DNA of 64,000 bases from Candidatus Collierbacteria bacterium UBA2277 (GCA_002347045.1 DDWV01000002.1:8551-72550), one strand, 5' to 3'; shown: positions 7,693 to 33,273, numbered from the stretch's first letter. The notes: generated by a model not told the origin, from the sequence alone. Program-made: numbers and translations.

Positions 7693-8613
7693 CTAACACA
7701 CGATTTCTCTAGCCACGTTTATTTCCGGATGAGCCTTTTCAAACCATTTAAACTGGGCCGTTCTATTTACCTCAATTATTCTCCACATCTTTCCATCTTC
7801 ATCCCAAGCCACGTCCAACCCAGCATACTCAGCTCTCAACACCTTAGTTGCGCTCAAAGATAAACTTGCCAACTCATTCATTTGTTCTTCAGAAAAACTT
7901 GGTTTTACTTTTGATATCTCCTCTTGAAACTCCAATGTTTGGTATTTATTTTTCTGTTTATGTTTCATCATTCCTAAAACTCTATCTTGAAACACCAACA
8001 CCCTGTACCATCTTCGCACCTTCAAGACAGGCTGAATCAATACATCTCCCTCACTATATATCTGAGACAGTTTTACCAATCTTTTCATAGACTCGGCTAG
8101 TTTTACATTTTTCCCATGTGAACCAAATCTCGCTTTTACCATCACAGGAACAAAATCGCCCCTCCTTTTTGCAACTAGCTTCAGATATCTTTTCCATCCT
8201 CTCTCACCGTTAAAAGAAATAAACGGAATCACCGGTAATCCGGCTTGAGCCAACAAAACCCCTTGTTCTAATTTACCCATCAAAGGAAACAGTTTAAAAC
8301 TCTCACCATTAATTACCTTTGGCTTATTCTCTTCTATTTTTTCCACATACTCCAAAATAATCGTCTTCACCCCCAACATAGACTTTTCACCTCTCTTTGA
8401 AGCTGCCCTTGGTACAATCAATCCATACTCTTCCACTTTTATTCCATTTCCTAAATCAATGATTGGTTTTCCCTTACTACTTACCCCAAGCCTAACATGC
8501 TCATAATTCACCCTATCCACTTGGAAACCCAACTTTTCCGCCTCCTCAGCTAGCCTTTTTGGCTCATACTCGCCTTTAAATCTGGTCAAAATTAATACTT
8601 TTTTCATATACAA
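7693..8613 (-). CDS. RimK-type ATP-grasp ligase (alpha-L-glutamate-ligase-like), paralog 1
   Basis: VMVKARFGSHGKNV and GLDVAWDEDGKMWRIIEVNRTAQF resemble RimK/LysX ATP-grasp motifs. 306 aa. Confidence 0.7.
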   Translation of the reverse strand: MYMKKVLILTRFKGEYEPKRLAEEAEKLGFQVDRVNYEHVRLGVSSKGKPIIDLGNGIKVEEYGLIVPRAASKRGEKSMLGVKTIILEYVEKIEENKPKVINGESFKLFPLMGKLEQGVLLAQAGLPVIPFISFNGERGWKRYLKLVAKRRGDFVPVMVKARFGSHGKNVKLAESMKRLVKLSQIYSEGDVLIQPVLKVRRWYRVLVFQDRVLGMMKHKQKNKYQTLEFQEEISKVKPSFSEEQMNELASLSLSATKVLRAEYAGLDVAWDEDGKMWRIIEVNRTAQFKWFEKAHPEINVAREIVC

Positions 8614-8652: not shown

Positions 8653-9567
8653 TTATTTCCCAAACTTACTAATACAATACTCAAGAATTATCTTCGGGGC
8701 ATTTATCTTCGTTCTCTTCTCAAACACCTTAAACTGAGGCGCCTCATTCACTTCAATTATGTAAACTTCACCAGTTTTCTTATCAATAACCAAGTCCGTT
8801 CCTGCCACCTCCACCTCCAAAACTTTTGCAGCTGCTTCTGCAACAGCAGTTACCTCTTTTGGCACTTCCTTTAGTCCCACAGAATTCCCCTGGCTTTTAT
8901 TCAAAATTAATTTCTCTTCCTTTACCTGTCTCTTAAACCCCCCAATGCATTTGTACCCAACAGTCATCACTCGATAGTCACCATCATTTTCAATATACTC
9001 TTGCACCAAAAAACCTCTCAGCGGTAATGCCTTTTCACCATTTACTTTTGCTTTCTTTTTTCTCTCTTCCAAAACAATTTTCAGTTTTCCCAAGTCTGAA
9101 TACTCTCTTATCCAAAAAGTTCCCATTCCATGTCTTCCACCTTGAGATAACTTCACAATCAAAGGGAACTTAGCTTCTCTCAAAAAAATCTCGAGGTCTT
9201 TCCAAGTTTCTATATACTCTGACTTTGGATACCTTACACCAGCCTCCTTCAACTGCCAGCTCATCACACTTTTAAAACGACGTAAAGGCCCCTCGCTTAT
9301 CAAGTACTCGTCTACCACTGGAATACTATGTTTCTTTGCATACAACTGCAACAATTTACTCCATTCCAACTCAGACCCTACAGATCGAAAATACCAGCCA
9401 TCAAAGTCACACATATCAACCTCCCCAAACATAATTTTTCCATTTACCATCTTTAGCTGTCGGTACTTAATCAAAACCAGCTCAACACCCAATAACTCTG
9501 CTTCTTTCAAAAATCGTTCTTCACTTTCATCAAAAGTAATTCTATGCAAATAAGCTATTTTCATCAT
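8653..9567 (-). CDS. RimK-type ATP-grasp ligase, paralog 2
   Basis: IVKLSQGGRHGMGTFWI and AGTDLVIDKKTGEVYIIEVNEAPQFKVF. 304 aa. 4-bp overlap with the upstream gene. Confidence 0.7.
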   Translation of the reverse strand: MMKIAYLHRITFDESEERFLKEAELLGVELVLIKYRQLKMVNGKIMFGEVDMCDFDGWYFRSVGSELEWSKLLQLYAKKHSIPVVDEYLISEGPLRRFKSVMSWQLKEAGVRYPKSEYIETWKDLEIFLREAKFPLIVKLSQGGRHGMGTFWIREYSDLGKLKIVLEERKKKAKVNGEKALPLRGFLVQEYIENDGDYRVMTVGYKCIGGFKRQVKEEKLILNKSQGNSVGLKEVPKEVTAVAEAAAKVLEVEVAGTDLVIDKKTGEVYIIEVNEAPQFKVFEKRTKINAPKIILEYCISKFGK

Positions 9568-10868
9568 TTTCTTGTTTTTATTAATCCAGGGTCAACCACA
9601 AACTCTTTCAGGTCGCGCCTTCCAATCAAAAGTTGTCTTCGTAAACCTTTTCTGTCTGTTAAATTTACCCTTGTACTTATCATTTTACCCTTTAACTTAA
9701 AGTCTAGAGCAATCAAAGTTCTCTCTTCTGTACCCAAAGAGTTTTTCACCCGTCTTTTCCATAAAGCATTTTCAGGAGTCACTAATCCAAGTTCAATTGC
9801 CAGATTTTTATCAATCGAGGTGCTTCTTGCTCCAGTATCAATTTTTGCTTCAACCTCTATCAATTTTCTTTTCCCATTTCTTACCCTCACAGTTTCAAAA
9901 ATACCAACCATCGGTTTTTCTTCACCAGAAAATCTCACTCTGTTTGCAAATTTACTTGCAAACAAAGCTTTTCCGATCCTTACACCTTTTTCTGGTTCAT
10001 CTACCTCCAGGCCCTCAACTCTCTGTAGCCGGCGCCTAAGACCTATCATATTCGCCAACTGAATCGAAAGACCTGGCTGGTCATTAAGTTCCAAAACCAC
10101 AGGCCCATTTTCTTCATCAATAAGCATGTCCACTGACAAGTAAGGAAGATTAGATACTTTTTGAGTTTTTACTGCCATTAACAAAATTCTATTCCAGTAA
10201 GGAATTGCAATTCCATTTACTTTTTTGTTAGAGTCCGGAAAATACTTTATTTGACGATTCTTATACACCCCATGAGTTGTAATCCCCGTAGCCATATCAA
10301 TTCCAAGACCAATAGCTCCCTGATGAAGGTTCGCTTTCCCAGCACTCTCTTCAGTTGGAAGTCGAAGCATGGCCATCACCGGAATCTGGTTGAACACAAT
10401 TATTCTTACATCAGGCGCCCCGCCGACCGCTAATTTCTTAAACTTTGGATGAATTTTTATTCTTTCCTCAATCATCACCTTATCAGGCAAATTGTTATGG
10501 GAATACTTTCCTTCCACAATATCAACAGCATGCAAAATTAGGTCCTCTACTCCAACCTTCTTTCCTTCTACCGTCAAAAATTTTCCCTCTTCTTTTGCCT
10601 GTCGACGAATCAACATAATTCCCTGGCCACCAAAACCTTGCACCGGTTTTATCGCAAATCCTCCATACAACTGACCCCAGTCAAAACTTCTTATCTCTGC
10701 AGGGTCAGAAAGAACTCCCATAAGTCCAGGGTGAGGTACACCAGCCTTACGAAGCATTCGTTTTGTCAAAAGCTTATCATCAGCTCTTTTTCTCGCCGAC
10801 TTTTTATTTAACAATAAATAGTCTGCCGACCTCGAATTTATTCCAAGAATATCGCTTAATCTTGGCAT
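9564..10868 (-). CDS. fusion protein: N-terminal ATP-grasp (RimK-related alpha-L-glutamate-ligase-like) plus C-terminal retropepsin-like aspartyl-protease domain (PF05618 / RimB-like, DTGA motif)
   Basis: FAIKPVQGFGGQGIMLI and VVLELNDQPGLSIQ in the ATP-grasp part. The C-terminal 130 aa are LIEVEAKIDTGARSTSIDKNLAIELGL... 434 aa. Confidence 0.7.
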   Translation of the reverse strand: MPRLSDILGINSRSADYLLLNKKSARKRADDKLLTKRMLRKAGVPHPGLMGVLSDPAEIRSFDWGQLYGGFAIKPVQGFGGQGIMLIRRQAKEEGKFLTVEGKKVGVEDLILHAVDIVEGKYSHNNLPDKVMIEERIKIHPKFKKLAVGGAPDVRIIVFNQIPVMAMLRLPTEESAGKANLHQGAIGLGIDMATGITTHGVYKNRQIKYFPDSNKKVNGIAIPYWNRILLMAVKTQKVSNLPYLSVDMLIDEENGPVVLELNDQPGLSIQLANMIGLRRRLQRVEGLEVDEPEKGVRIGKALFASKFANRVRFSGEEKPMVGIFETVRVRNGKRKLIEVEAKIDTGARSTSIDKNLAIELGLVTPENALWKRRVKNSLGTEERTLIALDFKLKGKMISTRVNLTDRKGLRRQLLIGRRDLKEFVVDPGLIKTRK

Positions 10869-10870
10869 GG

Positions 10871-11746
10871 TTATTTGGAAAGTAATTTTCTAAAACGCCA
10901 CACTTCCAGCAAACGAAGCCCTTTATATCTTCCAATAAGAAAATCTAAAGCCAAAATCAAGATTACCGATGTACCAGGGTGAAGCAACACCTGAGACTGC
11001 ACCCAAGGAGCACTCATTAGCTTGTACGCTATCAAAGCCAGGGTAACCGTCTCTACAGTCATCCACATAGATGTTCCAACACTTCTTGTAATCTGTGCTT
11101 CAATAAAAGTTTCAGCCAAAAGCACAAACAACATGATAGGGAAAATTCCAACCGTTGTTAGTTGCTTCAGTCCCAAACCCGTTGAAATAAGAAGCAAAAA
11201 CAAAACAGCCATTGAAACCATCCAAATTAAAATTGCAAGCTTTGGCAAATAAGGAACTCTAATCTTTTTAATTAACATCCTCCCAAGCGTAGCAACACCT
11301 ACAATATAAAATAACAAAATCAAGCCAGCAACTCCTCCTGTAGACAAAAACGCTACAGACAACAATGCTGGAGTAATTATTCCAAATCCTTTTACACCGA
11401 TTACCTGACGAGAAAAAGCTACCAAAGCAGCTACTAAAGGAAACAAAAACAACAAAACCAATGTATTTGGAGACACACCGGCAGCAACAGATTTTCTTAT
11501 TGCAATTTTCAAGATATCTCTACCCCACCAACTTGAAAGTTCTTGTTCTTTTAAGAGACTAGTCAACCTATCTCCTTTTTCAGTTGGCACAGTAATGTCC
11601 ACTGGTTTAGTCTCAACCACCTCTATTTCCTCAACCTCGGCTGAAACTGTTGACACAGGAATATCTTCTTTTATTGGAGCTCCCCAAACCTTAAATGGAA
11701 CTAAGAAAAAGGAAAATATTGCCAGAAACATCAATGCTTTTTTCAT
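10871..11746 (-). CDS. 7-TM membrane protein (7TM_transglut-like partner of RimK-related ligases) with signal peptide and a short extracellular acidic N-domain
   Basis: Signal peptide, about 110-aa acidic ectodomain, seven hydrophobic helices. 291 aa. 2-bp gap to the downstream ATP-grasp fusion gene. Confidence 0.55.
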   Translation of the reverse strand: MKKALMFLAIFSFFLVPFKVWGAPIKEDIPVSTVSAEVEEIEVVETKPVDITVPTEKGDRLTSLLKEQELSSWWGRDILKIAIRKSVAAGVSPNTLVLLFLFPLVAALVAFSRQVIGVKGFGIITPALLSVAFLSTGGVAGLILLFYIVGVATLGRMLIKKIRVPYLPKLAILIWMVSMAVLFLLLISTGLGLKQLTTVGIFPIMLFVLLAETFIEAQITRSVGTSMWMTVETVTLALIAYKLMSAPWVQSQVLLHPGTSVILILALDFLIGRYKGLRLLEVWRFRKLLSK

Positions 11747-11822: not shown

Positions 11823-12557
11823 CTACTGCTTAGCCATTACTATGAACATTTCATCATGCATCTCCCAAAACTTTCCTTGTTCTCCTGCACAAAGGGCTGC
11901 TTCAGCCGCTTTTTGTGCATCAGCATGAAAAGCCAAAGGGAAACTCTTATACTCCATACTTATTTTTTCTCCATATTTTTTCAACAAAGCCTCAATCGTT
12001 GGAAAAGAACGATTACAATAAGGGCACTCAAAGTCTGTGTACTCTACAATCTTAATTGTTGCGTTCTCCCCGCCTTTTATGTATCCATTACCATAAGGCA
12101 CTTTTGCCACTCTAGTAGAAACATCCCCAGTTGAGTCCAGCTTTACCTTATCACCGGTTCCATTTTTTAACTCTGCGTCAATCACTTTTTCAAAATCAGA
12201 CTGAGGCAAAGATCCTACAATCATAATTCCATTTATAAAAAATGTCGGCGTTCCTGACACTCCCAAATCTTGCCCTTCTTTATTTTCTGAAGCCACTCTA
12301 TCTGCCATTGCTCCATCATCTAAACACTTATTGAACTCTTTCATATCAAGACCAAAATTCTCAGCCATTGCTTTTACGGCATTCAAAGAGATACCTGATT
12401 CAGCAACTGCTGGAGTTACGGCTGTCTCAATACCGGCAACCTCTTTTCCTCCATTCATTTCTTTTACTTGGGCCGAAAGCCTACCCACAAAAAAAGAGGC
12501 TACAAGCAACATAAGTACTAATACCGGCGTATAAACTGAATTATTGTCTTTAAGCAT
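11823..12557 (-). CDS. membrane-anchored DsbA-like thiol:disulfide oxidoreductase with circularly permuted motif order
   Basis: N-terminal TM anchor. GVSGTPTFFING (cis-Pro region, normally C-terminal) comes before DFECPYC and FHADAQKAAEAALCAGEQGKFWEMHDEMF (normally N-terminal and helical insert). Confidence 0.7.
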   Translation of the reverse strand: MLKDNNSVYTPVLVLMLLVASFFVGRLSAQVKEMNGGKEVAGIETAVTPAVAESGISLNAVKAMAENFGLDMKEFNKCLDDGAMADRVASENKEGQDLGVSGTPTFFINGIMIVGSLPQSDFEKVIDAELKNGTGDKVKLDSTGDVSTRVAKVPYGNGYIKGGENATIKIVEYTDFECPYCNRSFPTIEALLKKYGEKISMEYKSFPLAFHADAQKAAEAALCAGEQGKFWEMHDEMFIVMAKQ

Positions 12558-12586: not shown

Positions 12587-14902
12587 TTAACTCACAACGT
12601 AATTAATAGTCTTTCCTTTTACAAAAATAGTCTTTCGAATAGTCCCTCCTGCTAAATATTTCTGAATTTTTTCTTGTGCTTCAGCTAGCCTCTTTACTTC
12701 TGCCTCATTGGCCTCAGGACTAGCTTCCAAAGTACCTCTCAACTTTCCGTTTATCTGTATTGAAAAGACAATCGTCTCACTCACTAAATACTTCTTGTCA
12801 ACTTCTGGCCAACTCTCCGAGTGAACACTAAATTCTTGTCCCAAAATACTCCACATTTCTTCAGCTACAAAGGGGGCAAACAGGGACAGAGTTTTTACCA
12901 ACATCATCAATTCTTCCTTACCAATTTCCATACCATCTTTTGTCAAAATATTTACTGCCTCCATCATTTTGGCAATCGAAGTATTAAATTTAAACAACTC
13001 AATCTCATCTCCAACTTTTTGCACCACTTTATTCACAACTCTTTTTACCTCTACACAACTATTACCCTCAAAGGTTGCGTTTTTTTCTATCAGGCCAAAA
13101 AACTTTTCAATAAATCTTTTTACTCCCACAAGAGATCTTTCATTCCAAGCCATCGTTGAGTCAAATGGCCCCATAAACATCATATATGTTCTCAGTACAT
13201 CTGTACCATAAATATCAGCCACATTGTCAGGAACAACCACGTTTCCAGCACTCTTACTCATTCTGTTTCCATCAGGTCCCAAAATCACCCCATGAGACAT
13301 TCGCTTGATATATGGCTCAGGACAGCTCTGAGGAACAACACCCAAATCAAACAAGAACTGATAAATAAATCGTGAATAAAGTAAATGTAAGGTATTGTGC
13401 TCATCTCCTCCCATATATACATCTACACTCATCCAATACTTCATTTTTTCCATGTCAGCCAAAGCACTCTCATTCTTTGGATCGCAATATCTAAGAAAGT
13501 ACCAGTCACTTCCTGCCCAGTTAGGCATAGTATCTGTCTCTCGATTAGCCTCTCTTCCACACTTCGGACACTTTGTTTCAACCCACTCTGAAATACTAGC
13601 CAAGGGAGACTCTCCCGTATCGGTTGGTTGGTATTTTTCTACCTCGGGTAATCTAATAGGAAGCTGATCCTCAGGTACCGGTACCCATCCACATTTATCA
13701 CACTTCACCATCGGGATAGGCTCGCCCCAGTAATGTTGTCGACTAAAAATCCAGTCTCGCAAATGATAATTAACAGCCTTTTCACCAACGCCTCTTTCAA
13801 CTATTTTTTCAATCAACTTTTCATCTGGCTCATACTCAGATTTTATTGGCAAATCGTATCTCACTGCAAACTCTTCGTCCCTCTCATCATGACTTGGCAC
13901 AGCCATAATTGCACCAGTTCCATACGAAATCAACACATAGTCAGCAATCCAAATTGGGATCTCCTCATTGTTTATCGGATTAATTGCAAAAAGTCCTGAA
14001 AACACACCCGTCTTCTCTTTCGAGAGCTCAGACCTCTCCATCTCACTCTTGTTCTTAGTATCCTCAACATATTTTTTTATTGCTTCAACCTTCATGAGAT
14101 CACCCACAATTTTGTGCTCAGGTGCAATCACCATAAAAGTAGCTCCTGTAAGAGTATCCGGCCTTGTAGTAAACACCTCAAGCTCATCCTCACTATCCTT
14201 TATGGCAAAACGAATTTTCGCCCCTACTCTTTTATCAATCCAGTTTATTTGAGCCGCTTTTACTTTATCGATAAAGTTCGTTTCCTTTAATCCGTCCAAA
14301 AGTCTTTCAGCATAGTCCGTTATCTTGACTACCCACTGTGAGATATTTCTTCTTTCAGTCAAAGCTCCACACCGCTCACAACTTCCGTCAACAACTTCTT
14401 CATTCGCCAAACCAATCTTGCAAGAAGGACACCAATTTATTGCCATCTCCTGTTTCTCAGCCAAATCCTTCTCAAAGAGTTTTGTAAAAATCCACTGCGT
14501 CCATTTGTAATAACTGGGATCAGTCGTATCTACTTCACGATCCCAATCAAAAGAAAATCCCAATCGTCTCATCTGAGATTTGTATTTTTCTGTATTTTCT
14601 TTAGTTACCACCTGAGGTTTCAAACCCATCTTTATAGCGTAGTTTTCCGTTGGCAAACCAAAAGCATCCCAACCCATGGGAAACATCACATTAAACCCCT
14701 GCATTCTCATAAAACGAGCATAAATATCTGCACCCGTCATTGAAAAAGCGTGCCCCACATGCAATCCCGAACCTGAAGGATAGGGGAACTCTTGAAGTAC
14801 ATATTTCTTTTTTCGTTTATCAAAATCCACGCCACGATATCCTACAAACCCATCATATTTCTCAACCCACTTTTCCTCAATTTTTCTAAAATCGTAAGAC
14901 AT
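12587..14902 (-). CDS. leuS: leucyl-tRNA synthetase
   Basis: HVGHAFSMTGADIYARFMRMQG (HIGH), KMSKS, CP1 editing domain. 771 aa. Confidence 0.92.
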   Translation of the reverse strand: MSYDFRKIEEKWVEKYDGFVGYRGVDFDKRKKKYVLQEFPYPSGSGLHVGHAFSMTGADIYARFMRMQGFNVMFPMGWDAFGLPTENYAIKMGLKPQVVTKENTEKYKSQMRRLGFSFDWDREVDTTDPSYYKWTQWIFTKLFEKDLAEKQEMAINWCPSCKIGLANEEVVDGSCERCGALTERRNISQWVVKITDYAERLLDGLKETNFIDKVKAAQINWIDKRVGAKIRFAIKDSEDELEVFTTRPDTLTGATFMVIAPEHKIVGDLMKVEAIKKYVEDTKNKSEMERSELSKEKTGVFSGLFAINPINNEEIPIWIADYVLISYGTGAIMAVPSHDERDEEFAVRYDLPIKSEYEPDEKLIEKIVERGVGEKAVNYHLRDWIFSRQHYWGEPIPMVKCDKCGWVPVPEDQLPIRLPEVEKYQPTDTGESPLASISEWVETKCPKCGREANRETDTMPNWAGSDWYFLRYCDPKNESALADMEKMKYWMSVDVYMGGDEHNTLHLLYSRFIYQFLFDLGVVPQSCPEPYIKRMSHGVILGPDGNRMSKSAGNVVVPDNVADIYGTDVLRTYMMFMGPFDSTMAWNERSLVGVKRFIEKFFGLIEKNATFEGNSCVEVKRVVNKVVQKVGDEIELFKFNTSIAKMMEAVNILTKDGMEIGKEELMMLVKTLSLFAPFVAEEMWSILGQEFSVHSESWPEVDKKYLVSETIVFSIQINGKLRGTLEASPEANEAEVKRLAEAQEKIQKYLAGGTIRKTIFVKGKTINYVVS

Positions 14903-14942
14903 GCCCTTATTCTAACATTCACTCTCAACCAAAGGAAAGGCA

Positions 14943-15896
14943 CTACCACTCACCAACTCGCACTACACTCTCTACCAACTCTATTCCCAAAGACTCCCGA
15001 GCTCTTCTTTTAATTTCTTCAATTAATTTAACAAAGTCCTTCGCCGTTCCCCCTCCCAAGTTTTCAATTGAGTTCTGATTTGTTTTTGAAACACGAATCT
15101 TCCCTACAGAAAACCCTTTAAGGTTAAGCACTTCCCCGATTACATATCCCACATCTCTCGAAGGATAATTAAATATTTGCCTTTCTTCTTCATTAATATC
15201 TTCAAAAACTTTAAAGACAGTTTTTTTCTGTTGATTATCCCTATCTTTTTCAGACTTCACTCTATTTTTCCTCACCTTTCCCTTCTCCAACACAAAAGTA
15301 GCGTCAGTTACCACGCAACCACCTAGCTCCTTTTTTGAACCTACAGACTTTACTGCCCCATGAGAGTCAATTATAGAAATCTTTTTCAAATCCTCACCAC
15401 CCAAACCTCCAACAACAACTCCACCCACAGTCCCTTTATACACTTCAAAACTATCAAATCCATTTATTCCCAAAGAATGAAGTTTTTCTATAGCAAAGCT
15501 CAACTGCACTCCGCTATCCACAGTTACCTCCATGTTTTTACTCTCTACTCGTCTCAAAAACTCTCCCACACTTCTTCTTTGCTGTCTTACCTGAATTCGC
15601 TCACTTTTGTTGTATATCACCAGACCACGAATTCCTTTATCGGAAACTATCACACCACTTCCTTCACCGATAACAGTCATAGGTACAGAAAAAGATCGAC
15701 AGAGTCGGACAGCCTTAACTAAGTCTCCTGAAGTCTCAGTTATGTAAAATAAATCAGCAGGTCCTCCGATTTGAATTGTTGTGTGCAAAGACATTGGCTC
15801 GTTTATTCTTAGCCTATCTGCCTCCAAACACTTTGCCAAACTTTCTATATTTCCCAAAGCACTACCAATATACAACATTTCACCAAACCACTCCAA
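14943..15896 (-). CDS. murB: UDP-N-acetylenolpyruvoylglucosamine reductase MurB
   Basis: HTTIQIGGPADLF FAD-binding N-terminus and a MurB C-terminal domain. Contains a Lys-rich insertion. 317 aa. Confidence 0.75.
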   Translation of the reverse strand: MEWFGEMLYIGSALGNIESLAKCLEADRLRINEPMSLHTTIQIGGPADLFYITETSGDLVKAVRLCRSFSVPMTVIGEGSGVIVSDKGIRGLVIYNKSERIQVRQQRRSVGEFLRRVESKNMEVTVDSGVQLSFAIEKLHSLGINGFDSFEVYKGTVGGVVVGGLGGEDLKKISIIDSHGAVKSVGSKKELGGCVVTDATFVLEKGKVRKNRVKSEKDRDNQQKKTVFKVFEDINEEERQIFNYPSRDVGYVIGEVLNLKGFSVGKIRVSKTNQNSIENLGGGTAKDFVKLIEEIKRRARESLGIELVESVVRVGEW

Positions 15897-15928
15897 TCAC
15901 AAAAAACTCAATGACTGTTCAAAGTAAT

Positions 15929-17773
15929 TTAGACTACCTCACAATCATCAAAACTCTCTTTTAGCATTTCTTCAATTACCCTTTTTTCAGACTCTCCTGC
16001 TATCAATAAAACTCTAATATAAAAAGTCTCGTCGTCCTCAACTTTTTCTACCTTGCTTCTTGCATCTCCGCCATTTTCACCAATTATCCTTGCCACTTTT
16101 TCAGATACACCAATCGAATTTTTTCCTCTTACTAGGACTGATGTGTACACTCCCTTCACAACTCCAGCATCGTCGAGTTTCTTTGCTACCAGCTCAAGTT
16201 CCAATCCATTTGCTAATTTATAGTACAAAGTCTCCACTCCATTCCAACATCCCAACTCAAATAACAGTTTATCAACCACATCATTTTTCAGATCTTCCAA
16301 GTTTAAAACTCCTCTTTCTCGCAACACTTTATCTATCAAAAGCACCTCTCCTTTTTCTACTTCCATATCGTGTATTAAAACTTTCATCTGTTGTTCTAAT
16401 ATCTCTCTAGTCTCCTCATTACACACCTTCAGCCACTTCTTATCGGGCATATTCCTATGCGGATCAGTAATAATTTCAACCAGCGCTGCATTTGGTATTA
16501 CGTCCCCCAGCTCCATCTCCTTGCCATTTACCAACATTTTTGTTGCCCTAAGACCCAAAAGTGGATTCAGCTTATATGCCAAGTCAATTCCTGTCGCCCC
16601 AGGTTTCATAATCACCAACTCCTCTTTAGGGGTAAAAATCATAATTCTTTGATACTTCTCAGGATTATTTTTTATTTCCTCAATATCAACTGTCAAAACG
16701 CCCCTCATGTTAAACTCCTCTTTTTCTTCCGTCGTAATCGCAATTTCAACCAAACCAGCACCAAATCTGTATTTTTCGTGTATTGCACTATATCCATTCA
16801 TCTCGGGTTTTACCAAAGTATCATCTCCACCTCCATTGGTACAAAGCTTATCTCCAAAATTCGCTCTCAACTCACCCATAGCGCGGTAACATTCCCCCAA
16901 ATCATTATTGTCACCAAGCACTACTCGAAAACTGATCACGTCCGTAATATCAGAAAACTCCTTTGGCAAAGAATCAGACCTCATCGCCGACATCCTTTGT
17001 TTTTCTGCCAACTCCCAGTATCCTCCAATTTGATGCCTAACTTCAGCTTTCACACCCGCCTCGTTCAAAGTAGACTGAATCTCTTCTTTGGTATTCCTAA
17101 TAAACTCTGGATCAAGTCTTGGGTCGCTATCAATTGCTTCTTTTACTCTCTGATATCTTTCAGGATCCATATAAAAAAATGAAATGTCTGCCAAAGAGTT
17201 TTTTATCTGCCACAACCCCAACGATTCTGCCAAAGGTACATACATTGTCAAAGTCTCTTTTGCCTTCGCCATCTTTTTTTCTTTTGAAAATCCTTTACCC
17301 AAAGGACCATCTTCCATTGTCTTCATGTTGTGCAACCTATCAGCAAACTTTATCATCGACACTCTGAGCTCTACTCTAGCTTTTCTTGCCAACTTCTTCA
17401 GTGTCTCAAAATCATTATCCTTGCCAGTTGGTGATTTAAATTTACTTACTCCATCAACCGAATGTGCCACCCTTGGACTAAACATATCTTCAATCAGCTC
17501 TAAATTTATAGCATCAGGATGATCTTCAACAGTGTCATGCAGAATCCCCGCTATTACCGTATCCTCATCACACCCCCACTCAATAAGCAACTCCGCAACC
17601 GCTATACAGTGATTTACATAAGGCTCACCTGTAGTTTTTCTAAAGTCATTTTTATGAATTTCTTCGGCCAGACCTAAGGCCAATCTTTCTTTCTGGGATA
17701 ACTTTGCACAAAACTCATTTTTCTCAATTTTAAAATCAGCTCCCCTTTTTATATCTACAGCAGTTTCAGTCAT
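15929..17773 (-). CDS. rel: bifunctional (p)ppGpp synthetase/hydrolase Rel/SpoT homolog
   Basis: HD motif HDTVEDH, RLHNM, synthetase domain, TGS domain. 614 aa. Confidence 0.85.
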   Translation of the reverse strand: MTETAVDIKRGADFKIEKNEFCAKLSQKERLALGLAEEIHKNDFRKTTGEPYVNHCIAVAELLIEWGCDEDTVIAGILHDTVEDHPDAINLELIEDMFSPRVAHSVDGVSKFKSPTGKDNDFETLKKLARKARVELRVSMIKFADRLHNMKTMEDGPLGKGFSKEKKMAKAKETLTMYVPLAESLGLWQIKNSLADISFFYMDPERYQRVKEAIDSDPRLDPEFIRNTKEEIQSTLNEAGVKAEVRHQIGGYWELAEKQRMSAMRSDSLPKEFSDITDVISFRVVLGDNNDLGECYRAMGELRANFGDKLCTNGGGDDTLVKPEMNGYSAIHEKYRFGAGLVEIAITTEEKEEFNMRGVLTVDIEEIKNNPEKYQRIMIFTPKEELVIMKPGATGIDLAYKLNPLLGLRATKMLVNGKEMELGDVIPNAALVEIITDPHRNMPDKKWLKVCNEETREILEQQMKVLIHDMEVEKGEVLLIDKVLRERGVLNLEDLKNDVVDKLLFELGCWNGVETLYYKLANGLELELVAKKLDDAGVVKGVYTSVLVRGKNSIGVSEKVARIIGENGGDARSKVEKVEDDETFYIRVLLIAGESEKRVIEEMLKESFDDCEVV

Positions 17774-17833
17774 CTTAAAGTGAAAGTATACTCCTATAAC
17801 ATAGTCTTGTCACCACCCATTTGAACTCAACCC

Positions 17834-19165
17834 TTGTATAATAAACCTCAAATGGAAAGAACATACATTAAAGACATCAAAAACAACCTTGGAAAACAGG
17901 TCTCTCTTTCCGGTTTTGCCCAAACAATTAGGAAACAAGGAGGCATAATCTTCTTAATTCTTCGTGACATCACCGGAACCACTCAAGCTGTGGCCATAAA
18001 ATCCAACACACAAACTTTCCAAACACTTCAAGAGCTTTCTCTGGAGTCAGTCGTCACACTAACTGGAGAAGCAAAAGAAAACTCCCAAGCACCAAATGGT
18101 TTAGAAATTTTTATTGAATCCATTGAAGTCCTTTCTCGAGCAGAGCCAGAGCTACCAATTCCCGTCGATGAAAAAGGCGAAGGAGAAACCAATCTCGACA
18201 CACGTCTTGATTGGCGTTATCTTGACCTTCGCAAAGAAAAAAACGCCCTTATCTTCAAGGTTTGGACCACACTTGAACAGGCATTTAGAAACTACTGTAC
18301 AGGAAACGACTTCATAGAAATTCACTCTCCGAAGACCGTAGTTACTTCAACAGAATCAGGTTCAGAACTATTCGAAATTAAATATTTCGAAAACAAGGCA
18401 TTTCTCGCTCAATCTCCTCAGCTATACAAACAAATGGCCATGGCTGCTGGATTTGAAAAAGTTTTTGAAATTGGACCTGTCTTTAGGGCCAACCCTTCTT
18501 TCACTTCTCGTCACGACACTGAGTTCACCATGTATGACATAGAAATGTCATTTATTGCCTCACACCACGACCTAATGGACGTAGAAGAATCCATAATGGT
18601 CGACATTTTCAAGGCCTTAAAAGACAAGCACAGTGAAGAAATAAAACAAACTTTTGGACAAGAAATTGAAGTCCCCAAACGTCCTTTCCCTCGAGTTACA
18701 TTCAAAGAAGTCAAAAAAATACTTGCTGATCAAAAGATATCCAGTGAAAAAGAAAACGATCTCTGTCCAGAAGAAGAAAGAGCTATTTGTGAGTATTTCA
18801 AAAACAAAGAAGGGCACGACTTTGTTTTTATCCATGAGTTTCCAACAGAGTCGAGAGCTTTTTATAGCATGAGAGATGAAAAAGACCCAACAATTACAAA
18901 GAGTTTCGATCTCTTGTACAAAGGTCTCGAAATTACTAGTGGTGCCCAAAGAGAACACCGCTACGAAATCCTAAAAAGCCAAATCGAAGAAAAAGGGTTC
19001 GAACTAAAACCATTTAAAAGCTATCTAGATTTCTTCAAATATGGCTGTCCTCCACATGGCGGCTTTGCTCCAGGACCCTCAAGACTTGTTATGAAAATTC
19101 TTGGCCTTGCCAATGTCAGAGAGGTCACATATATTTATCGAGGGGTCAAGAGACTAACACCCTAA
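17834..19165 (+). CDS. aspS: aspartyl-tRNA synthetase, archaeal/eukaryal-type class IIb (AsnRS not excluded). Probable true start is ATG at 17852.
   Basis: FRANPSFTSRHDTEFTMYDIEM motif 2 region and PPHGGFAPGPSRLVM motif 3. The track start is TTG inside a TGTATAAT box. Confidence 0.75.
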   Translation: MYNKPQMERTYIKDIKNNLGKQVSLSGFAQTIRKQGGIIFLILRDITGTTQAVAIKSNTQTFQTLQELSLESVVTLTGEAKENSQAPNGLEIFIESIEVLSRAEPELPIPVDEKGEGETNLDTRLDWRYLDLRKEKNALIFKVWTTLEQAFRNYCTGNDFIEIHSPKTVVTSTESGSELFEIKYFENKAFLAQSPQLYKQMAMAAGFEKVFEIGPVFRANPSFTSRHDTEFTMYDIEMSFIASHHDLMDVEESIMVDIFKALKDKHSEEIKQTFGQEIEVPKRPFPRVTFKEVKKILADQKISSEKENDLCPEEERAICEYFKNKEGHDFVFIHEFPTESRAFYSMRDEKDPTITKSFDLLYKGLEITSGAQREHRYEILKSQIEEKGFELKPFKSYLDFFKYGCPPHGGFAPGPSRLVMKILGLANVREVTYIYRGVKRLTP

Positions 19166-19174
19166 TCAAAAACT

Positions 19175-20548
19175 ATGGAAAAACAAGACAATCAAGTCAC
19201 TCTAGAAAAGATTATTTCTCTTGCCAAACGCCGAGGTTTCGTCTTTCCTGGATCCGAAATTTATGGAGGTCTCGCCAACACCTACGACTTTGGCCCGCTT
19301 GGTACCGAACTAAAAAGAAACCTCATTAATATCTGGTGGAAAAAATTCGTTACCGACAGATCCGACATGTTTGGTCTTGATACATCTGTTCTCATGAGTC
19401 CAAAAGTATGGGAAGCTTCAGGTCACACAGAGAACTTCACCAATGTCATGATTGACTGCCTTACATGCAACTACCGTACCAGAGCTGATCACCTAATAGA
19501 AGAAAAGGTCAAAGGAGCCGAGAATGTTGAAGGTAAACCTTTGAAAGAACTAGATAAAATAATCAAAGACAACGATATCAAATGTCCCAAGTGTGGCAAA
19601 AAAAACTGGACCAAAACTAGAACCTTCAACCAGCTTTTTGAAACTCAGATTGGTATCATCACCGAAGGAAAAAGTACCGCATATCTTCGTGGCGAACTCG
19701 CTCAAGGCATGTTCGTTGACTTCAAACAAGTCCTAGATTCTCTTCACCCCAAACTCCCCTTTGGTCTAGCTCAATCCGGCAAAGCTTTCAGAAACGAAAT
19801 CACCATGGGAAAGTTTACTTTCAGAACCTTAGAGTTTGATCTTGCTGAGTTCGAATACTTTGTCAAGCCAGAAGACTGGGAACAATATTTCGAGTACTGG
19901 AAAAAAGAAATGTTTACCTTTGCTATCTCTCTAGGAATACCAGAAACAAAACTTCGCTGGAGAGCTCACACCAAAGAAGAGCTCAGTCACTATAGTTCTC
20001 GTACCGAAGATCTCGAGTACGAATTCCCATGGGGCTTCAAAGAAATGTTTGGACTCGCTTATCGAACCGACTTCGACCTTAAAAACCACATCGAAAAATC
20101 TGGTGTCGATCTGCGTTACACAGATCCTTACACTCAGGAAAAATTTATTCCCCACGTCGTCGAGCCAACATTTGGCCTTTCACGGCTTCTCACTATTGTT
20201 CTGATGAATTCATATTTTGAAGACACAGAAAAAAAGAGGGTTGTTATGAAATTTCCCAAGGCCTTAGCCCCATACAAGGTTGCTGTATTCCCCCTTGTTG
20301 GAAACAAAGAGGAATTAAGCACCAAAGCCAAAGAAATTTTCGAAATGCTTAAAACCGAAATGAATGCCGTTCTAGATGAGCGTGGCAATATTGGTAAGCG
20401 TTACTTCACACAAGACGAGGTAGGTACGCCCTACTGTGTAACAGTAGACTACACCACCCTCGAAGACAACACGGTTACAGTAAGAGAAAGAGACACCGCA
20501 AAACAAACCCGAGTCGATATAAATAACCTTCTTCAGTTTTTCAAGTAA
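19175..20548 (+). CDS. glyQS: glycyl-tRNA synthetase (dimeric alpha2 type)
   Basis: EIYGGLANTYDFGPLG, class II motifs. 457 aa. Confidence 0.88.
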   Translation: MEKQDNQVTLEKIISLAKRRGFVFPGSEIYGGLANTYDFGPLGTELKRNLINIWWKKFVTDRSDMFGLDTSVLMSPKVWEASGHTENFTNVMIDCLTCNYRTRADHLIEEKVKGAENVEGKPLKELDKIIKDNDIKCPKCGKKNWTKTRTFNQLFETQIGIITEGKSTAYLRGELAQGMFVDFKQVLDSLHPKLPFGLAQSGKAFRNEITMGKFTFRTLEFDLAEFEYFVKPEDWEQYFEYWKKEMFTFAISLGIPETKLRWRAHTKEELSHYSSRTEDLEYEFPWGFKEMFGLAYRTDFDLKNHIEKSGVDLRYTDPYTQEKFIPHVVEPTFGLSRLLTIVLMNSYFEDTEKKRVVMKFPKALAPYKVAVFPLVGNKEELSTKAKEIFEMLKTEMNAVLDERGNIGKRYFTQDEVGTPYCVTVDYTTLEDNTVTVRERDTAKQTRVDINNLLQFFK

Positions 20549-20654
20549 ACCAATTATCTTCCGTCTTGGGAAAAACAACCCCTACTAAAACAGCGTTTTT
20601 TCTTAGTGAGAATATCTTATACTTCTATAATTTTTCACAAAGAGAAGTGTAAAG

Positions 20655-20729
20655 GGTGGATGACGGGAATCGAACCCGCTACCTCCTCCTCCACAGGGAG
20701 GCGCTCTAACCAGATGAGCTACACCCACC
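20655..20729 (-). tRNA. tRNA-His (anticodon GTG) with encoded G-1
   Basis: Reverse complement G-GTGGGTG-TA-GCTC-ATCTGGTTA-GAGC-G-CCTCC-CTGTGGA-GGAGG-AGGTA-GCGGG-TTCGATT-CCCGT-CATCCAC-C. The extra 5' G is typical of tRNA-His. It sits directly downstream of hisS. Confidence 0.88.
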
Positions 20730-20787
20730 AAAAAAGGTGAACTCCTACATTTTACAACACATTAACCTCAGGAACACATTCTCCCTA

Positions 20788-22104
20788 TTATATATTTTGT
20801 ATCTTTTTTATTACAGTTTTTATATCTAGTAGTTCTTGATCCCCTGTTTCCATATTTTTTAGAGCTATCTTCTTCAGCTTCTCTTCTTCCTCTCCAATAA
20901 TTGCTATATAGGGAACTCCAACTTTATTAGCATATGTTAATTTCTTTCTAAACTTATCATCCTCAGTAAACACCTCAACTGGGATACCAGCCATACGCAT
21001 TTCACTAGCTGTTTTCAATGAAAAGGCCGACACCTTATCCATCGGCACAATAAGAACTTTTGCCACAGCAGACGTATCTGCTTTAACAATCCCTACACTA
21101 ATTAGCTGTGAAAAAAGCCTGGTAAGTCCAATCGAAACACCCACACCAGGGAGTCTTTGATTCGTATAACTATCTGCTAAATTATCAAATCTTCCTCCCC
21201 CGCAGACACTACCTTTTATCCTATCATCAAGAAGTTTTGTTTCATAAACTGTACCAGTGTAATAAGACAGCCCTCGTGCAATTGAAAGGTCTATCTGCAA
21301 ATTCTTCTCTGGTACTCCAAAATCAAACGCCATCTTAACCACTTCTTTCAATTCATTCACACCAGTATCAAATAAATCGTTCTTTATATCAAAAGACTCC
21401 AATTTATCGATAATCTGTTTATTTGATCCAGTTATCTTTACAAACTCAATAATTTTTTCAACATCACCAGACTTTATCCCCAAATCCTCAATCAACATCA
21501 AACGTACTGTTTCTTGCCCCACCTTCTCAAGCTTATCAATTGCCCTCAAAATTTCGTCTATTTTATTCAATGAACCCAAAGAATCCACCAAACCGCTTAA
21601 AATTTTTCTATTGTTAATGCTAATTAAAAAATCTCCCAAATCAAGCTTCTCAAATACTCTATTGATTACAGCAGGAATCTCAGCATCATTCGCAAGGCTT
21701 AAACTTCCATTTCCAATTATGTCAATATCACATTGATAAAACTCACGAAAACGCCCCTTCTGAGGTCTTTCACCGCGATACACCTTTCCTATCTGATACC
21801 TTCTATAAGGAAAGGTAAGCTGGTTATAATACATCGCCACATACCTCGCCAAAGGTACTGTTAAGTCAAATCTCAACCCCAAATCATCTCCACCTTTAGA
21901 AAATCGATAAATTTCCTTCTTAGTATCTTCACCTATCTCAGAAAATAAAATGTCGGCATTTTCTACAATTGGAGTATCTTGTGGTACAAAACCATACTCT
22001 TCATAAGTGTCTCGAATGATTTTTAGATATTTGTTAAAAAGAATCTGCTCCCCAGGTAGAAGCTCCATAAACCCGGCCTGAATTCTTGGTGTTACTTTTG
22101 TCAT
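20788..22104 (-). CDS. hisS: histidyl-tRNA synthetase
   Basis: Class II motifs (YRGERPQKGRFREFYQ, GGGRFDNL). 438 aa. Confidence 0.9.
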   Translation of the reverse strand: MTKVTPRIQAGFMELLPGEQILFNKYLKIIRDTYEEYGFVPQDTPIVENADILFSEIGEDTKKEIYRFSKGGDDLGLRFDLTVPLARYVAMYYNQLTFPYRRYQIGKVYRGERPQKGRFREFYQCDIDIIGNGSLSLANDAEIPAVINRVFEKLDLGDFLISINNRKILSGLVDSLGSLNKIDEILRAIDKLEKVGQETVRLMLIEDLGIKSGDVEKIIEFVKITGSNKQIIDKLESFDIKNDLFDTGVNELKEVVKMAFDFGVPEKNLQIDLSIARGLSYYTGTVYETKLLDDRIKGSVCGGGRFDNLADSYTNQRLPGVGVSIGLTRLFSQLISVGIVKADTSAVAKVLIVPMDKVSAFSLKTASEMRMAGIPVEVFTEDDKFRKKLTYANKVGVPYIAIIGEEEEKLKKIALKNMETGDQELLDIKTVIKKIQNI

Positions 22105-22109
22105 TTTTA

Positions 22110-23312
22110 CTATTTTACAATTTTTATATATTTTCGTTTTCCCACACGCACTACTCCGTCACCCACAGCTATCTCTTCACTGTTTTTCTCTACCCTCACT
22201 TCATTCAAATAAACCCCTCCTTGTTCAACCAATCTTTTTGCTTCACCCTTACTTGATGCCATCCCATTATCTACAATCATTTTAATTATTTCCTCCGTAG
22301 TCACAAAACTCTTCTCCCATTTTACTTCAGGTGCATTTTCATCCACCTTCTTCTCCACCACAGTTTTTTGAAAAAACTCCTCCGCAGCTTCTACCTCATT
22401 TTTTCCACAAAGCTCACGAACTATTATTCTTCCTAACTCTCGCTTAATGTTCATTGGATTTTCACCACTTTCAAGCCTAATTTTGGCTTCATCTATTACA
22501 GAAACATCCACATTAGTACCCATTGTGTAGTAAGGAATTATCATATCATCACTTACAGACATAATTTTTCCAAATATCTCCTCAGGTGAGTCCTCAAGCC
22601 ATACAGCATTTCCCCAAGTTTTACTCATTTTCCTACCGTCGGTTCCTGGCAAAAATCCATTAGCTACAATACAGGAATCTTTTCCCTTAAGGTCATGAAT
22701 CAAAGTTCTTCCTGCTTGCATATTAAATGTCTGATCAGTTCCACCTAGTTGAATATCCGTGTCCAGTGCAAAACTATCATACCCCTGCATAATTGGATAA
22801 AGCACTTCTGGCAAACTTACACTTTTCCCCTCGGTAAGTCGTTTCTTAATTAACTCTCGACCGATAAAGTCGTTCAAAGAAAAGTGACTCGTCAGTTTCA
22901 ACACTCCAGCAAAATCGAGCTTACTAAGCCACTCGCTATTAAATCGAACTTCTATTTTAGAATAATCCAAAAACTTTTTTGCCTGCCTCTTGTACGTCTG
23001 AAAATTTTCTTCAACCTGTTCTCTTGTCAAAACAGGCCTCTCACTTTCTTTATCGGAAGTATCTCCGACTGTAGCGGTAAAGTCTCCTATCAAAAATGTT
23101 ACATGATGTCCCAACTCTGCCAATATTTGCAACTTTCTCAAAGGAAAAGCATGTCCAAGATGAATTCTTGTGGCCGTTGGGTCAATACCCATATATACAT
23201 TAAGCACCTTTCCAGAACTCAATAGTTTTTCAACTTCCTCCTTGCCCGGAATAATGTTTTCTACTCCACGAGTCAAAAAGCTTTCAATTAATTCGCCTTC
23301 TTTTGTTGTCAT
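22110..23312 (-). CDS. tyrS: tyrosyl-tRNA synthetase
   Basis: HLGHAFPLRKLQ (HIGH), KMSKT, C-terminal S4 domain. 400 aa. Confidence 0.9.
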   Translation of the reverse strand: MTTKEGELIESFLTRGVENIIPGKEEVEKLLSSGKVLNVYMGIDPTATRIHLGHAFPLRKLQILAELGHHVTFLIGDFTATVGDTSDKESERPVLTREQVEENFQTYKRQAKKFLDYSKIEVRFNSEWLSKLDFAGVLKLTSHFSLNDFIGRELIKKRLTEGKSVSLPEVLYPIMQGYDSFALDTDIQLGGTDQTFNMQAGRTLIHDLKGKDSCIVANGFLPGTDGRKMSKTWGNAVWLEDSPEEIFGKIMSVSDDMIIPYYTMGTNVDVSVIDEAKIRLESGENPMNIKRELGRIIVRELCGKNEVEAAEEFFQKTVVEKKVDENAPEVKWEKSFVTTEEIIKMIVDNGMASSKGEAKRLVEQGGVYLNEVRVEKNSEEIAVGDGVVRVGKRKYIKIVK

Positions 23313-31958: not shown

Positions 31959-32948
31959 CTAATAACTACTCGTTCTTCCAGTTAGATATTTCTCCACATC
32001 CAATGCAGCCTGACACCCCATACCCGCTGCCGTCACTGCTTGTCGATATCGATAATCCACCACATCTCCACAACCAAAAACACCTTCCACAGATGTCATC
32101 GTGGGATACCCCTCAAGCCAAACATCTTTTTCACTTACACGCCATTTAGTGTCAGACATCAAACTAGTCATTGTTGTAGTTAAATATCCCTTTTTGTCCA
32201 ACTCCAACAAACCTTCAAACAGCTTTGTAGTTGGTACATGTCCAATAGCTACAAACAAACCATCCGCTGAAAGCTCCTCAACCTTACCAGTTTTTATATT
32301 TTTTACTTTAATTGTTTGAAGTACTGCCTCTCCACTCACACCAACAATCTCACTATCCCATATCACTTTTATTTTTGAGTTAGCCAGCACCCTTTCTTGC
32401 ATGATTTTGCTTGCTCGAAATTCATCCCTTCTATGTATTATTGCCACCTCGCTAGCAAACTTTGATAACGCAATCGCATCTTCAATAGCCGCATCTCCTC
32501 CACCAACCACATAAGTCTTTTTATTTTTGTAAAAAGCCGCATCACACACAGCACAAGTACTAACTCCACGCCCAATATATTCCTCCTCTCCCACCCCAAT
32601 CATCTTAGACGAAGCTCCTGTAGATATCACTACAGCCTTTGCTCGATACTCTTCTTTTCCAACCCATACTTTTTTAGTCGTAGAAGACAACTCCACTTTT
32701 GTAACCTCAGAATACACCACTTCGGATCCAAATCTTTTTGCTTGTTTCTCCATCTCCATCATCAAATCAGGTCCCATTATTCCCTTAGAAAAGCCAGGAT
32801 AGTTCTCAACCTCAGTAGTATTCATCAACTGACCACCAGGATGATTTCCAGACAGCACCAACACAGACAAGGTTGCTCTAGAAAGATAGATCGCCGCCGT
32901 ATAACCACTTGGTCCACCACCCACAACGATCACATCCCACATTTTCAT
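31959..32948 (-). CDS. trxB: thioredoxin-disulfide reductase
   Basis: VVGGGPSGYTAAIY, redox-active CAVCD. 329 aa. Confidence 0.9.
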   Translation of the reverse strand: MKMWDVIVVGGGPSGYTAAIYLSRATLSVLVLSGNHPGGQLMNTTEVENYPGFSKGIMGPDLMMEMEKQAKRFGSEVVYSEVTKVELSSTTKKVWVGKEEYRAKAVVISTGASSKMIGVGEEEYIGRGVSTCAVCDAAFYKNKKTYVVGGGDAAIEDAIALSKFASEVAIIHRRDEFRASKIMQERVLANSKIKVIWDSEIVGVSGEAVLQTIKVKNIKTGKVEELSADGLFVAIGHVPTTKLFEGLLELDKKGYLTTTMTSLMSDTKWRVSEKDVWLEGYPTMTSVEGVFGCGDVVDYRYRQAVTAAGMGCQAALDVEKYLTGRTSSY

Positions 32949-32949
32949 A

Positions 32950-33273
32950 TTACTTTAAAACTTTCTTAATCATCTCTTCATACACCTCTTTACCTCCAAA
33001 ACCTACCTGACGAGCCACTTCTTTTCCCTCATTAAACATTACTACCGTTGGAATACTCATCACTCCATATTTTCCTGCCACTCCAGAGTTTGCATCAACA
33101 TCAACCTTTCCTACAATTATCTTTCCATCAAAAGTCTTTGCCATTTCTTCGATAACGGGAGCAACCATTCTACAAGGACCACACCAATCAGCGAAAAAAT
33201 CAACCAAAACTGGTTTGTCTGCTTTTAAAACTACCTCTTCAAAATTACCATCTGTAAATTGTGCTATTTCCAT
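32950..33273 (-). CDS. trxA: thioredoxin
   Basis: WCGPC active site. 107 aa. Confidence 0.9.
   Translation of the reverse strand: MEIAQFTDGNFEEVVLKADKPVLVDFFADWCGPCRMVAPVIEEMAKTFDGKIIVGKVDVDANSGVAGKYGVMSIPTVVMFNEGKEVARQVGFGGKEVYEEMIKKVLK

Follow-up and report, generated by a model that had tools for sequence, protein, structure and literature searches.

A conserved DsbA-family gene with swapped segment order in Candidatus Collierbacteria: a probable natural circular permutation

We analysed a 64,000-nucleotide stretch of DNA from Candidatus Collierbacteria bacterium UBA2277 (GCA_002347045.1, DDWV01000002.1:8551–72550), hereafter called the window. Its positions 11,823 to 12,557 carry a gene for a protein of the DsbA family of thiol-disulfide oxidoreductases, in which the two halves of the domain follow each other in swapped order. 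A preliminary description, made from the sequence alone, had proposed a continuous 244-codon open reading frame (ORF) for a circularly permuted, DsbA-like oxidoreductase with an N-terminal membrane anchor. The ORF list indeed contains this frame on the minus strand, and the motifs quoted in that description, GLDMKEF..CLDD, GVSGTPTFFING, FECPYC, and QGKFWEMHDEMF, were all recovered in the protein. The gene and the parts of its product (aa, amino acids; A1, an alignment of 42 homologues) are as follows, with structural elements numbered as in ordinary DsbA.

11823–12557, minus strand: complete coding sequence of the permuted DsbA-family protein, 244 aa plus stop codon (ORF list, Pfam, identical public protein P0001)
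12474–12533, minus strand: N-terminal hydrophobic segment YTPVLVLMLLVASFFVGRLS, aa 9–28, a signal anchor or signal peptide (conservation, model, hydropathy)
12402–12473, minus strand: tether from the anchor to the folded domain, aa 29–52, variable and of low confidence
12162–12401, minus strand: C-type block, aa 53–132, with helices 4 and 5, connecting helix 6, the Thr103-cisPro104 loop, strands 4–5, and helix 7
12324–12326, minus strand: Cys78 in helix 5, predicted partner in a structural disulfide, invariant in A1
12246–12251, minus strand: Thr103-Pro104 of the cis-Pro loop, codons ACG CCG, invariant in A1
12117–12161, minus strand: new linker between the matched blocks, aa 133–147, connecting old helix 7 with the former N-terminal strand region
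11826–12116, minus strand: N-type block, aa 148–244, with strands 1–2, active-site helix 1, strand 3, and helices 2–3, followed by the stop codon
12015–12026, minus strand: active site Cys178-Pro-Tyr-Cys181, codons TGC CCT TAT TGT, with helix 179–198 in the model
11889–11891, minus strand: Cys223 in helix 2, predicted partner in a structural disulfide, located 45 residues beyond the first active-site cysteine

The order of the segments was examined with Pfam profiles and with phmmer searches against the PDB. The whole protein scored 88 bits against Thioredoxin_4 (PF13462; gathering cut-off, 23.2) and 76.1 bits against DSBA (PF01323; gathering cut-off, 25.6), in both cases with two separate stretches. 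Positions 6–87 of the Thioredoxin_4 profile corresponded to residues 159–238 of the query, and positions 124–190 of the DSBA profile to residues 60–126. Likewise, query residues 140–238 aligned with residues 55–151 of the DsbA from Corynebacterium diphtheriae (4PWO), and query residues 61–133 with residues 168–241. Canonical DsbAs run from strand 1 through the CxxC helix, the helical domain, and the cis-Pro strand to helix 7; the query does not follow this N-to-C order, and the block positions confirm that its halves are swapped. When the protein was un-permuted in silico by a cut at the linker, with the pieces rejoined as residues 140–244 plus 46–139, a single Thioredoxin_4 stretch covering positions 6–165 of 165 was obtained with 95.3 bits, and 4PWO was matched in a single stretch (62–240). 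One full-length match after un-permuting indicates a clean circular permutation without loss of any element, which rules out a partial domain or a chance arrangement of motifs. We conclude that the query is a DsbA homologue with non-canonical connectivity.

A structural model was computed with AlphaFold2 on the basis of alignment A1. It reached a mean predicted local distance difference test (pLDDT) score of 87.9, with values above 90 across most of residues 50–244, and describes one confident domain with a thioredoxin fold and an inserted helical domain. In the predicted chain, a transmembrane-like helix and a disordered tether are followed by the old helices 4–6, strands 4–5, helix 7, and the linker, and then by the old strands 1–2, active-site helix 1, strand 3, and the old helices 2–3. 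The folded chain begins with helix 4 and stops behind helix 3, and the linker joins the old termini. Within the C-type block, helices were assigned to residues 58–67, 72–80, 85–97, and 119–132 and strands to 105–108 and 111–114; the N-type block comprises strands at 160–162, 168–174, and 199–205 and helices at 179–198, 214–225, and 230–243. The linker is ordered in the model (pLDDT 87–94), and the tether has pLDDT values of 45–49 over residues 31–50, its length and sequence varying among the homologues. The N-terminal segment was modelled as a long helix (residues 6–35), and hydropathy indicated one transmembrane segment; the hydrophobic residues 9–28 are followed by ...LSA-Q. Residues Y9, L17, F22, G25, L27, and S28 of this segment are invariant in A1.

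Foldseek ranked 1UN2 first among PDB structures (204 columns, template-modelling score of 0.70 normalised to the target, E value of 1.5e-5), and each native DsbA-like structure was aligned over no more than ~85–90 columns in this search. This entry was the top match by two methods, with 163–204 aligned positions, whereas native DsbA-like structures superposed on the query model over only ~85–100 residues. Structure searches with both natural permutant models placed it first. In a phmmer alignment, query residues 62–184 were colinear with residues 10–131 of the 1UN2 chain, across the engineered junction. 1UN2 is the crystal structure of cpDsbA_Q100T99, an engineered variant of E. coli DsbA from a random circular permutation library (Hennecke, Sebbel, & Glockshuber, 1999; cited in PMC3281007 and PMC13552848). 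Like the query, cpDsbA_Q100T99 starts at helix 4, proceeds to helix 7, is connected by a linker to strand 1, and terminates behind helix 3. The natural termini are thus situated in the same helix 3–helix 4 loop that was opened in the active engineered protein. Unlike the query, with which it shares only 15–17% identity, 1UN2 was engineered in the laboratory from a soluble periplasmic enzyme and has a CPHC active site, Val-cisPro, and no second disulfide. The natural permutants belong to the Thioredoxin_4 branch, carry CPYC or CPFC and Thr-cisPro, are evolutionarily conserved, and possess an N-terminal membrane segment, a longer linker, and an extra cysteine pair in helices 2 and 5.

In a simple motif alignment with the E. 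coli DsbA sequence, E53/S54 of the query fall at about Q100, S57 coincides with S104, and the C-terminal Q244 lies within a few residues of T99. The linker of the engineered E. coli permutant is presumably GGGTG. Five linker residues reportedly suffice in the 1UN2 construct, and the active permutants characterised by Hennecke and coworkers in 1999 are said to have had near wild-type properties.

A protein search yielded more than 100 full-length homologues of 229–290 aa with 54–73% identity, which, where named, derive from Candidatus Woesebacteria, Collierbacteria, or the 'Microgenomates group'. The cis-Pro motif preceded the CxxC motif in 111 of the proteins fetched from this search; the permuted arrangement is thus shared by related genomes and, as described below, by two further families. 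Invariant positions in A1 include the active-site cysteines C178 and C181, the G102-T103-P104 motif, C78, C223, and many residues of the core. The G-T-P motif of the predicted cis-Pro loop opposite the active site directly precedes strand 105–108 and is conserved in 179–180 of 180 DsbA units, and both active-site cysteines are present in 180/180. Considering segment order, model, and conservation together, we regard it as about 85% probable that the gene encodes a real and functional, naturally circularly permuted DsbA (Thioredoxin_4/DSBA) thiol-disulfide oxidoreductase, with the cut between helices 3 and 4.

Besides the active-site pair, the protein contains Cys78 and Cys223, and the corresponding positions were inspected in 179 permuted and canonical DsbA units. 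Both cysteines were present in 40 units and neither in 139, and no unit had one alone; the units were counted as they are, uncorrected for kinship among the sequences. Both residues were kept in 242/242 permutants examined from three lineages and in 96/98 canonical archaeal relatives. It follows that the subfamily inherited the pair from its ancestor and that permutants are not alone in having it. In relatives, this non-catalytic disulfide of the helical domain is seen in crystal structures: in MtbDsbA, the C140–C192 disulfide of the four-helix bundle 'links helices H2 and H5' (PMC3792642), and C111–C157 of PaDsbA2 is the equivalent bond (PMC3870256). The spacing agrees with that of the query pair, as C66 and C111 of PaDsbA2 are 45 residues apart, like C178 and C223 of the query. 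Since the cut lies between helices 3 and 4, a C78–C223 bond would join the C-terminal to the N-terminal segment, and the predicted disulfide may in this way stabilise the permuted topology.

A motif-order script was applied to loci from a scan of species-representative genomes with generic patterns, whose matches are a sample rather than a taxonomic census of the Microgenomates clade. Among these loci, permuted ORFs were found in three further genomes, namely a Woesearchaeota archaeon (locus L013), Thermoflexus (L023), and a Dehalococcoidia metagenome-assembled genome (MAG; L028), and Pfam confirmed the swapped order in all three. A search with the archaeal protein returned 13 permuted archaeal clusters of 229–253 aa, some of them from TARA marine samples; the permutants from DPANN archaea comprise P0269, P0274–P0283, P0300, and locus L013. 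Every complete archaeal permutant ends with ...F-x-x-G-V, and ~98 canonical archaeal DsbAs run on at exactly this position (...LFEKGV|SGGVSSFKQFAKDIGL...). The N-terminal 'TITIKK..LWK' anchor is common to canonical and permuted archaeal proteins. In the search with the Thermoflexus protein, all 120 matches listed were permuted (at least 120 clusters, 55–98% identity); the list is therefore saturated and the count a lower bound. The Chloroflexota permutants (P0389–P0508, with L023 and L028) include entries named Tepidiforma sp., Tepidiformaceae, Dehalococcoidia, and Anaerolinea. The position of the C-terminus and the length of the linker in the three lineages are as follows.

DPANN archaea: 7 residues after FWExHD, linker of ~7 residues
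Microgenomates: mostly 7–9 residues after FWExHD, linker of ~15 residues
Chloroflexota: 13–15 residues after FWExHD, linker of ~28 residues

Permutants of the DPANN archaea and Chloroflexota resemble the query in the block swap behind an N-terminal anchor, in the cut within the helix 3–helix 4 loop, and in the extra cysteine pair. They are, however, only 38–51% identical to the clade of the window and closer to canonical DsbAs. After un-permutation, the groups shared 49–71% identity with canonical-order domains compared with 35–56% with other permuted groups. Neighbour-joining trees were calculated by simple distance from ~165–172 columns, with a canonical sample biased by the search patterns. 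All 200 bootstrap replicates contained the Microgenomates clade and likewise the Chloroflexota pair, whereas any union of permuted groups appeared in 0–1 of 200. The trees did not unite the archaeal permutants either; as P0269 and the P0274 group have an insertion in common, however, we do not claim several origins within the archaea. Because the permuted groups were not joined in the trees and are nearer to canonical domains, we conclude that at least three independent permutations probably took place, each in the same loop, in the Microgenomates, DPANN archaea, and Chloroflexota. That DsbA was permuted independently at least three times, each time in the helix 3–helix 4 loop whose opening proved permissive in engineering, and that this was tolerated or favoured by a staple between helices 2 and 5, is a tentative proposal that falls a little short of an even bet.

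How the permuted chain may have arisen is suggested by tandem DsbA proteins. The query is colinear across the domain 1–domain 2 junction of the tandem proteins P0101 (412 aa), P0103, P0116, P0118, and P0120. Such arrays provide the architecture needed by the permutation-by-duplication model; unlike the query, they consist of whole domains in canonical order. A tandem fusion with the layout anchor-A-B-A-B would give a permuted chain upon loss of the first A and the last B, and the permuted DsbAs would accordingly descend from a DsbA-DsbA fusion that lost its outer halves. Tandem-DsbA proteins (P0121–P0268; loci L009–L053) are abundant, especially in Myxococcota, and contain up to nine half-domain stretches, equivalent to roughly four or five domains, in up to ~1200 aa; P0121, for instance, has 1163 aa and 9 matched stretches. 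In a search of representatives, multi-domain arrays filled the top 150 entries by summed score, with no entry of 240–290 aa among them. As a separate observation, a tandem DsbA ORF at L031:6489–8225 (plus strand) stops immediately behind helix 3 of the final domain (...FWEMHDILFKNQQALICGRSR*); although it could be a truncated intermediate, a frameshift in a long-read MAG is the likelier explanation. Most other apparent intermediates resulted from a motif pattern that missed variant sequences.

With regard to function, an extracytoplasmic thiol-disulfide oxidoreductase is suggested by the CPYC motif (CPFC in relatives), the Thr-cisPro loop, and the best sequence matches. These best matches, obtained with phmmer against the PDB, are Gram-positive DsbA-type oxidases, namely DsbA/TsdA of C. 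diphtheriae and BdbD, and an extracytoplasmic thiol oxidase is the most likely assignment on these grounds. Near relatives with the canonical order are the DsbA-like oxidases of the Thioredoxin_4 branch, namely DsbA/TsdA of C. diphtheriae (4PWO, 7UNN), BdbD of B. subtilis (3EU3), DsbA2 of P. aeruginosa (4N30), DsbA Rv2969c of M. tuberculosis, and Wolbachia alpha-DsbA1. The query is homologous to these oxidases in both halves and shares CxxC and Thr-cisPro with them, and its predicted anchor is reminiscent of the membrane or lipid tethering of Gram-positive-type canonical DsbAs. The tether of a canonical DsbA, however, enters strand 1 of the thioredoxin domain, whereas that of the query enters the helical domain at helix 4. 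In addition, the active-site segment of the query is made and exported last, unlike that of canonical DsbAs.

In the working model, the chain would open with an N-terminal signal segment or membrane anchor, followed by a flexible tether that leads into helices 4–7 with the Thr-cisPro loop. The linker of ~15 residues would close the old termini, followed by strands 1–3 with the CPYC helix, helices 2–3, and the stop. As every element of the fold is retained, the catalytic face formed by CPYC and the cis-Pro loop would assemble as in ordinary DsbA, and the Cys223–Cys78 disulfide would tie the C-terminal to the N-terminal segment covalently across the cut. Outside the cytoplasmic membrane, the protein would oxidise cysteine pairs of exported proteins and would itself be re-oxidised by a DsbB- or VKOR-type partner encoded elsewhere.

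Several observations weigh against parts of this picture. No gene for DsbB, VKOR, or a CcdA-like protein was detected in the 64-kb window, neither as an ORF with several transmembrane segments and CxxC nor by tblastn with the archaeal DsbB from L013; a partner encoded elsewhere and an oxidising direction are therefore putative. The combination of CPYC or CPFC with Thr-cisPro is also known from relatives that act as reductases or isomerases, for example ScsC, and these proteins feature among the PDB matches. Concerning the origin, half-by-half identities to domains 1 and 2 of the sampled tandem proteins gave no domain-specific signal for a direct tandem ancestor, and the loci searched by motif pattern contained no convincing half-truncated intermediate. 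Because neither ancestor nor convincing intermediate was found, we infer the duplication step from the architecture of the tandem arrays.

The archaeal locus L013 has a different setting, in which a BdbC-like DsbB (PF02600, E value of 4.5e-14) is encoded ~850 bp from the permuted gene.

L013 1864–2403, minus strand: DsbB gene (PF02600)
L013 3272–3973: permuted DsbA, in swapped order according to Pfam

Between these two genes, at L013:2686–3207 (plus strand), lies an ORF for a 173-aa protein with ~6 transmembrane segments and a membrane-embedded PGCATCG motif. It had no Pfam match, and its product may be a further redox component.

A different function has to be considered in view of the gene neighbourhood of the window. 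The preliminary description had placed the gene 29 bp from leuS and directly upstream of an operon for a seven-transmembrane (7TM) and ATP-grasp proteins. Both statements were correct: the leuS stop lies at 12587, and a gap of 76 bp separates the permuted gene from the 7TM gene start at 11746.

12587–14902: leuS, 29 bp from the permuted dsbA, which lies downstream
10871–11746, minus strand: cysteine-free 7TM_transglut membrane protein, 76 bp downstream of the permuted dsbA
9564–10868, minus strand: ATPgrasp_ST ligase with a C-terminal retropepsin/'Zn_protease' (RimB-like) domain
8653–9567, minus strand: RimK-type ATP-grasp gene
7693–8613, minus strand: RimK-type ATP-grasp gene

The order permuted dsbA, 7TM_transglut, ATPgrasp_ST, RimK, RimK was found in all six Microgenomates contexts examined (among them the window, L003, L005, L007, and L008), and it persists in L007 and L008, in which leuS is not the neighbouring gene. 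This adjacency could mean that the permuted protein is a dedicated partner of the 7TM_transglut/ATP-grasp set, and a function as an ScsC- or DsbC-like reductase or isomerase would agree with the significant PDB matches to ScsC proteins (4GXZ, 4XVW, 6NEN, 7RGV), with the occurrence of Thr-cisPro and CPYC in non-oxidase relatives, and with the partner-less window. We nevertheless consider such a role for the permuted fold unlikely. The best sequence matches are the DsbA-type oxidases mentioned above, and a CcdA/DsbD-like supplier of reductant was not seen in the window either. The 7TM protein is cysteine-free and the ATP-grasp proteins have no signal sequences, so that they are not obvious substrates. 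Moreover, the genes farther out in the neighbourhood (aminoacyl-tRNA synthetases, relA/spoT, and murB) keep their order as well in these closely related genomes, and synteny thus spans many housekeeping genes. We take the lack of cysteines in the 7TM protein and the wider synteny as signs of an inherited gene order and not of a shared function. Finally, the archaeal and Chloroflexota permutants do not have this neighbourhood, and the archaeal one lies near a DsbB gene.

Instead of folding as a monomeric permuted domain, the protein could form a segment-swapped dimer, in which each chain lends half a DsbA domain to its partner. In principle, chains built as C-half, linker, N-half could complement each other, and the models computed were of monomers only. 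However, the model of the monomer has high confidence, and its linker is ordered; the 15 residues of this linker suffice because the termini of DsbA are close together, and the archaeal protein is modelled as a monomer with a linker of only ~7 residues. A swapped dimer is therefore very improbable.

The tandem proteins described above, whose colinearity with the query across the domain junction reveals the expected precursor architecture, raise the question of whether the ORF is a non-functional, decaying remnant of a tandem DsbA-DsbA gene that lost its first N-half and second C-half. Yet the more than 100 orthologues keep exactly this architecture together with invariant catalytic residues, the set of elements is complete, the single-domain model has high confidence, and the engineered protein 1UN2 folds with the same topology. 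Among five orthologues for which DNA was available, the nonsynonymous divergence (dN) amounted to 0.15–0.41, and the synonymous divergence (dS) was saturated. The ratio omega was 0.05–0.22 in both halves where it was computable, which was mostly not the case owing to the saturated dS; these values are well below 1. Judged from these divergences, the permuted order is kept by purifying selection, and a decaying remnant is extremely improbable. An assembly or gene-calling artefact, for example a chimeric join within the gene, deserves next to no credence: nothing beyond the unusual order itself speaks for it, whereas the identical 244-aa protein (P0001) occurs on 7 contigs, including ENA ERZ27315057 and JGI 3300002702, orthologues from many studies lie on contigs of up to 905 kb, and two further families share the swapped order. 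The identical protein on seven contigs, the conserved orthologues, and the low omega values together thus exclude both misassembly and a decaying pseudogene.

DsbA is a standard textbook case, both for oxidative protein folding and for circular permutation by experiment. Our search of the full-text literature, mostly of non-subscription journals, retrieved engineered permutants and papers on circular-permutation methods and no natural permuted DsbA; for Patescibacteria in combination with DsbA it yielded a single incidental match. We know of no study on the oxidative-folding machinery of Patescibacteria or DPANN archaea. In databases, the permutants are named 'DsbA family protein', 'protein-disulfide isomerase', or 'thioredoxin domain-containing protein'. 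Family and chemistry are ordinary; what is new, and of interest to research on protein evolution and oxidative folding, is the connectivity, its conservation, its apparent recurrence, and the coincidence with the engineered site. The conserved natural permutant is an evolutionary counterpart of the laboratory result, with its cut in the loop that was also opened in the crystallised engineered protein. The apparent recurrence in three lineages would offer a rare, replicated opportunity to study the origin of permutations from tandem fusions, with the disulfide across the cut as a candidate for the structural feature that makes a site permissive. If this holds true, hundreds of database entries in which the rearrangement is unannotated would represent a natural, replicated experiment on the permutation sites that are within the reach of evolution. 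Search tools that assume colinearity of sequence or structure split or under-score permuted DsbAs, and current annotation hides the rearrangement. From the topology it follows that the active-site segment leaves the ribosome and the translocon last. Both the displaced tether and an active site that emerges late may affect the coupling of disulfide formation and secretion in Patescibacteria and DPANN archaea, although the importance of this point is speculative.

Some further observations concern the surroundings of the gene. A scan for promoters and terminators between 8.5 and 15.1 kb gave nothing above shuffled expectation in the intergenic gaps. One of the contigs with the conserved neighbourhood (L008, CAYTOI010000009.1) is labelled 'uncultured Pseudomonadales bacterium' and carries a permuted dsbA of the Microgenomates type together with the leuS...7TM/ATP-grasp neighbourhood; hence, the taxonomic label of this bin is probably wrong. 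The window also encodes a cytoplasmic thioredoxin (32950–33273, minus strand; CxxC at residue 31) next to a thioredoxin-reductase-like flavoprotein (31959–32948, minus strand), an ordinary reducing system that is unrelated to the permuted protein. The permuted gene is flanked, at positions 12587–23312, by an unusually dense run of aminoacyl-tRNA synthetase genes (leuS, two aspS/asnS-like genes, a glyS-like gene, hisS, and tyrS), which is interleaved with murB and a gene for a relA/spoT-type HD_4 protein and is conserved in related genomes.
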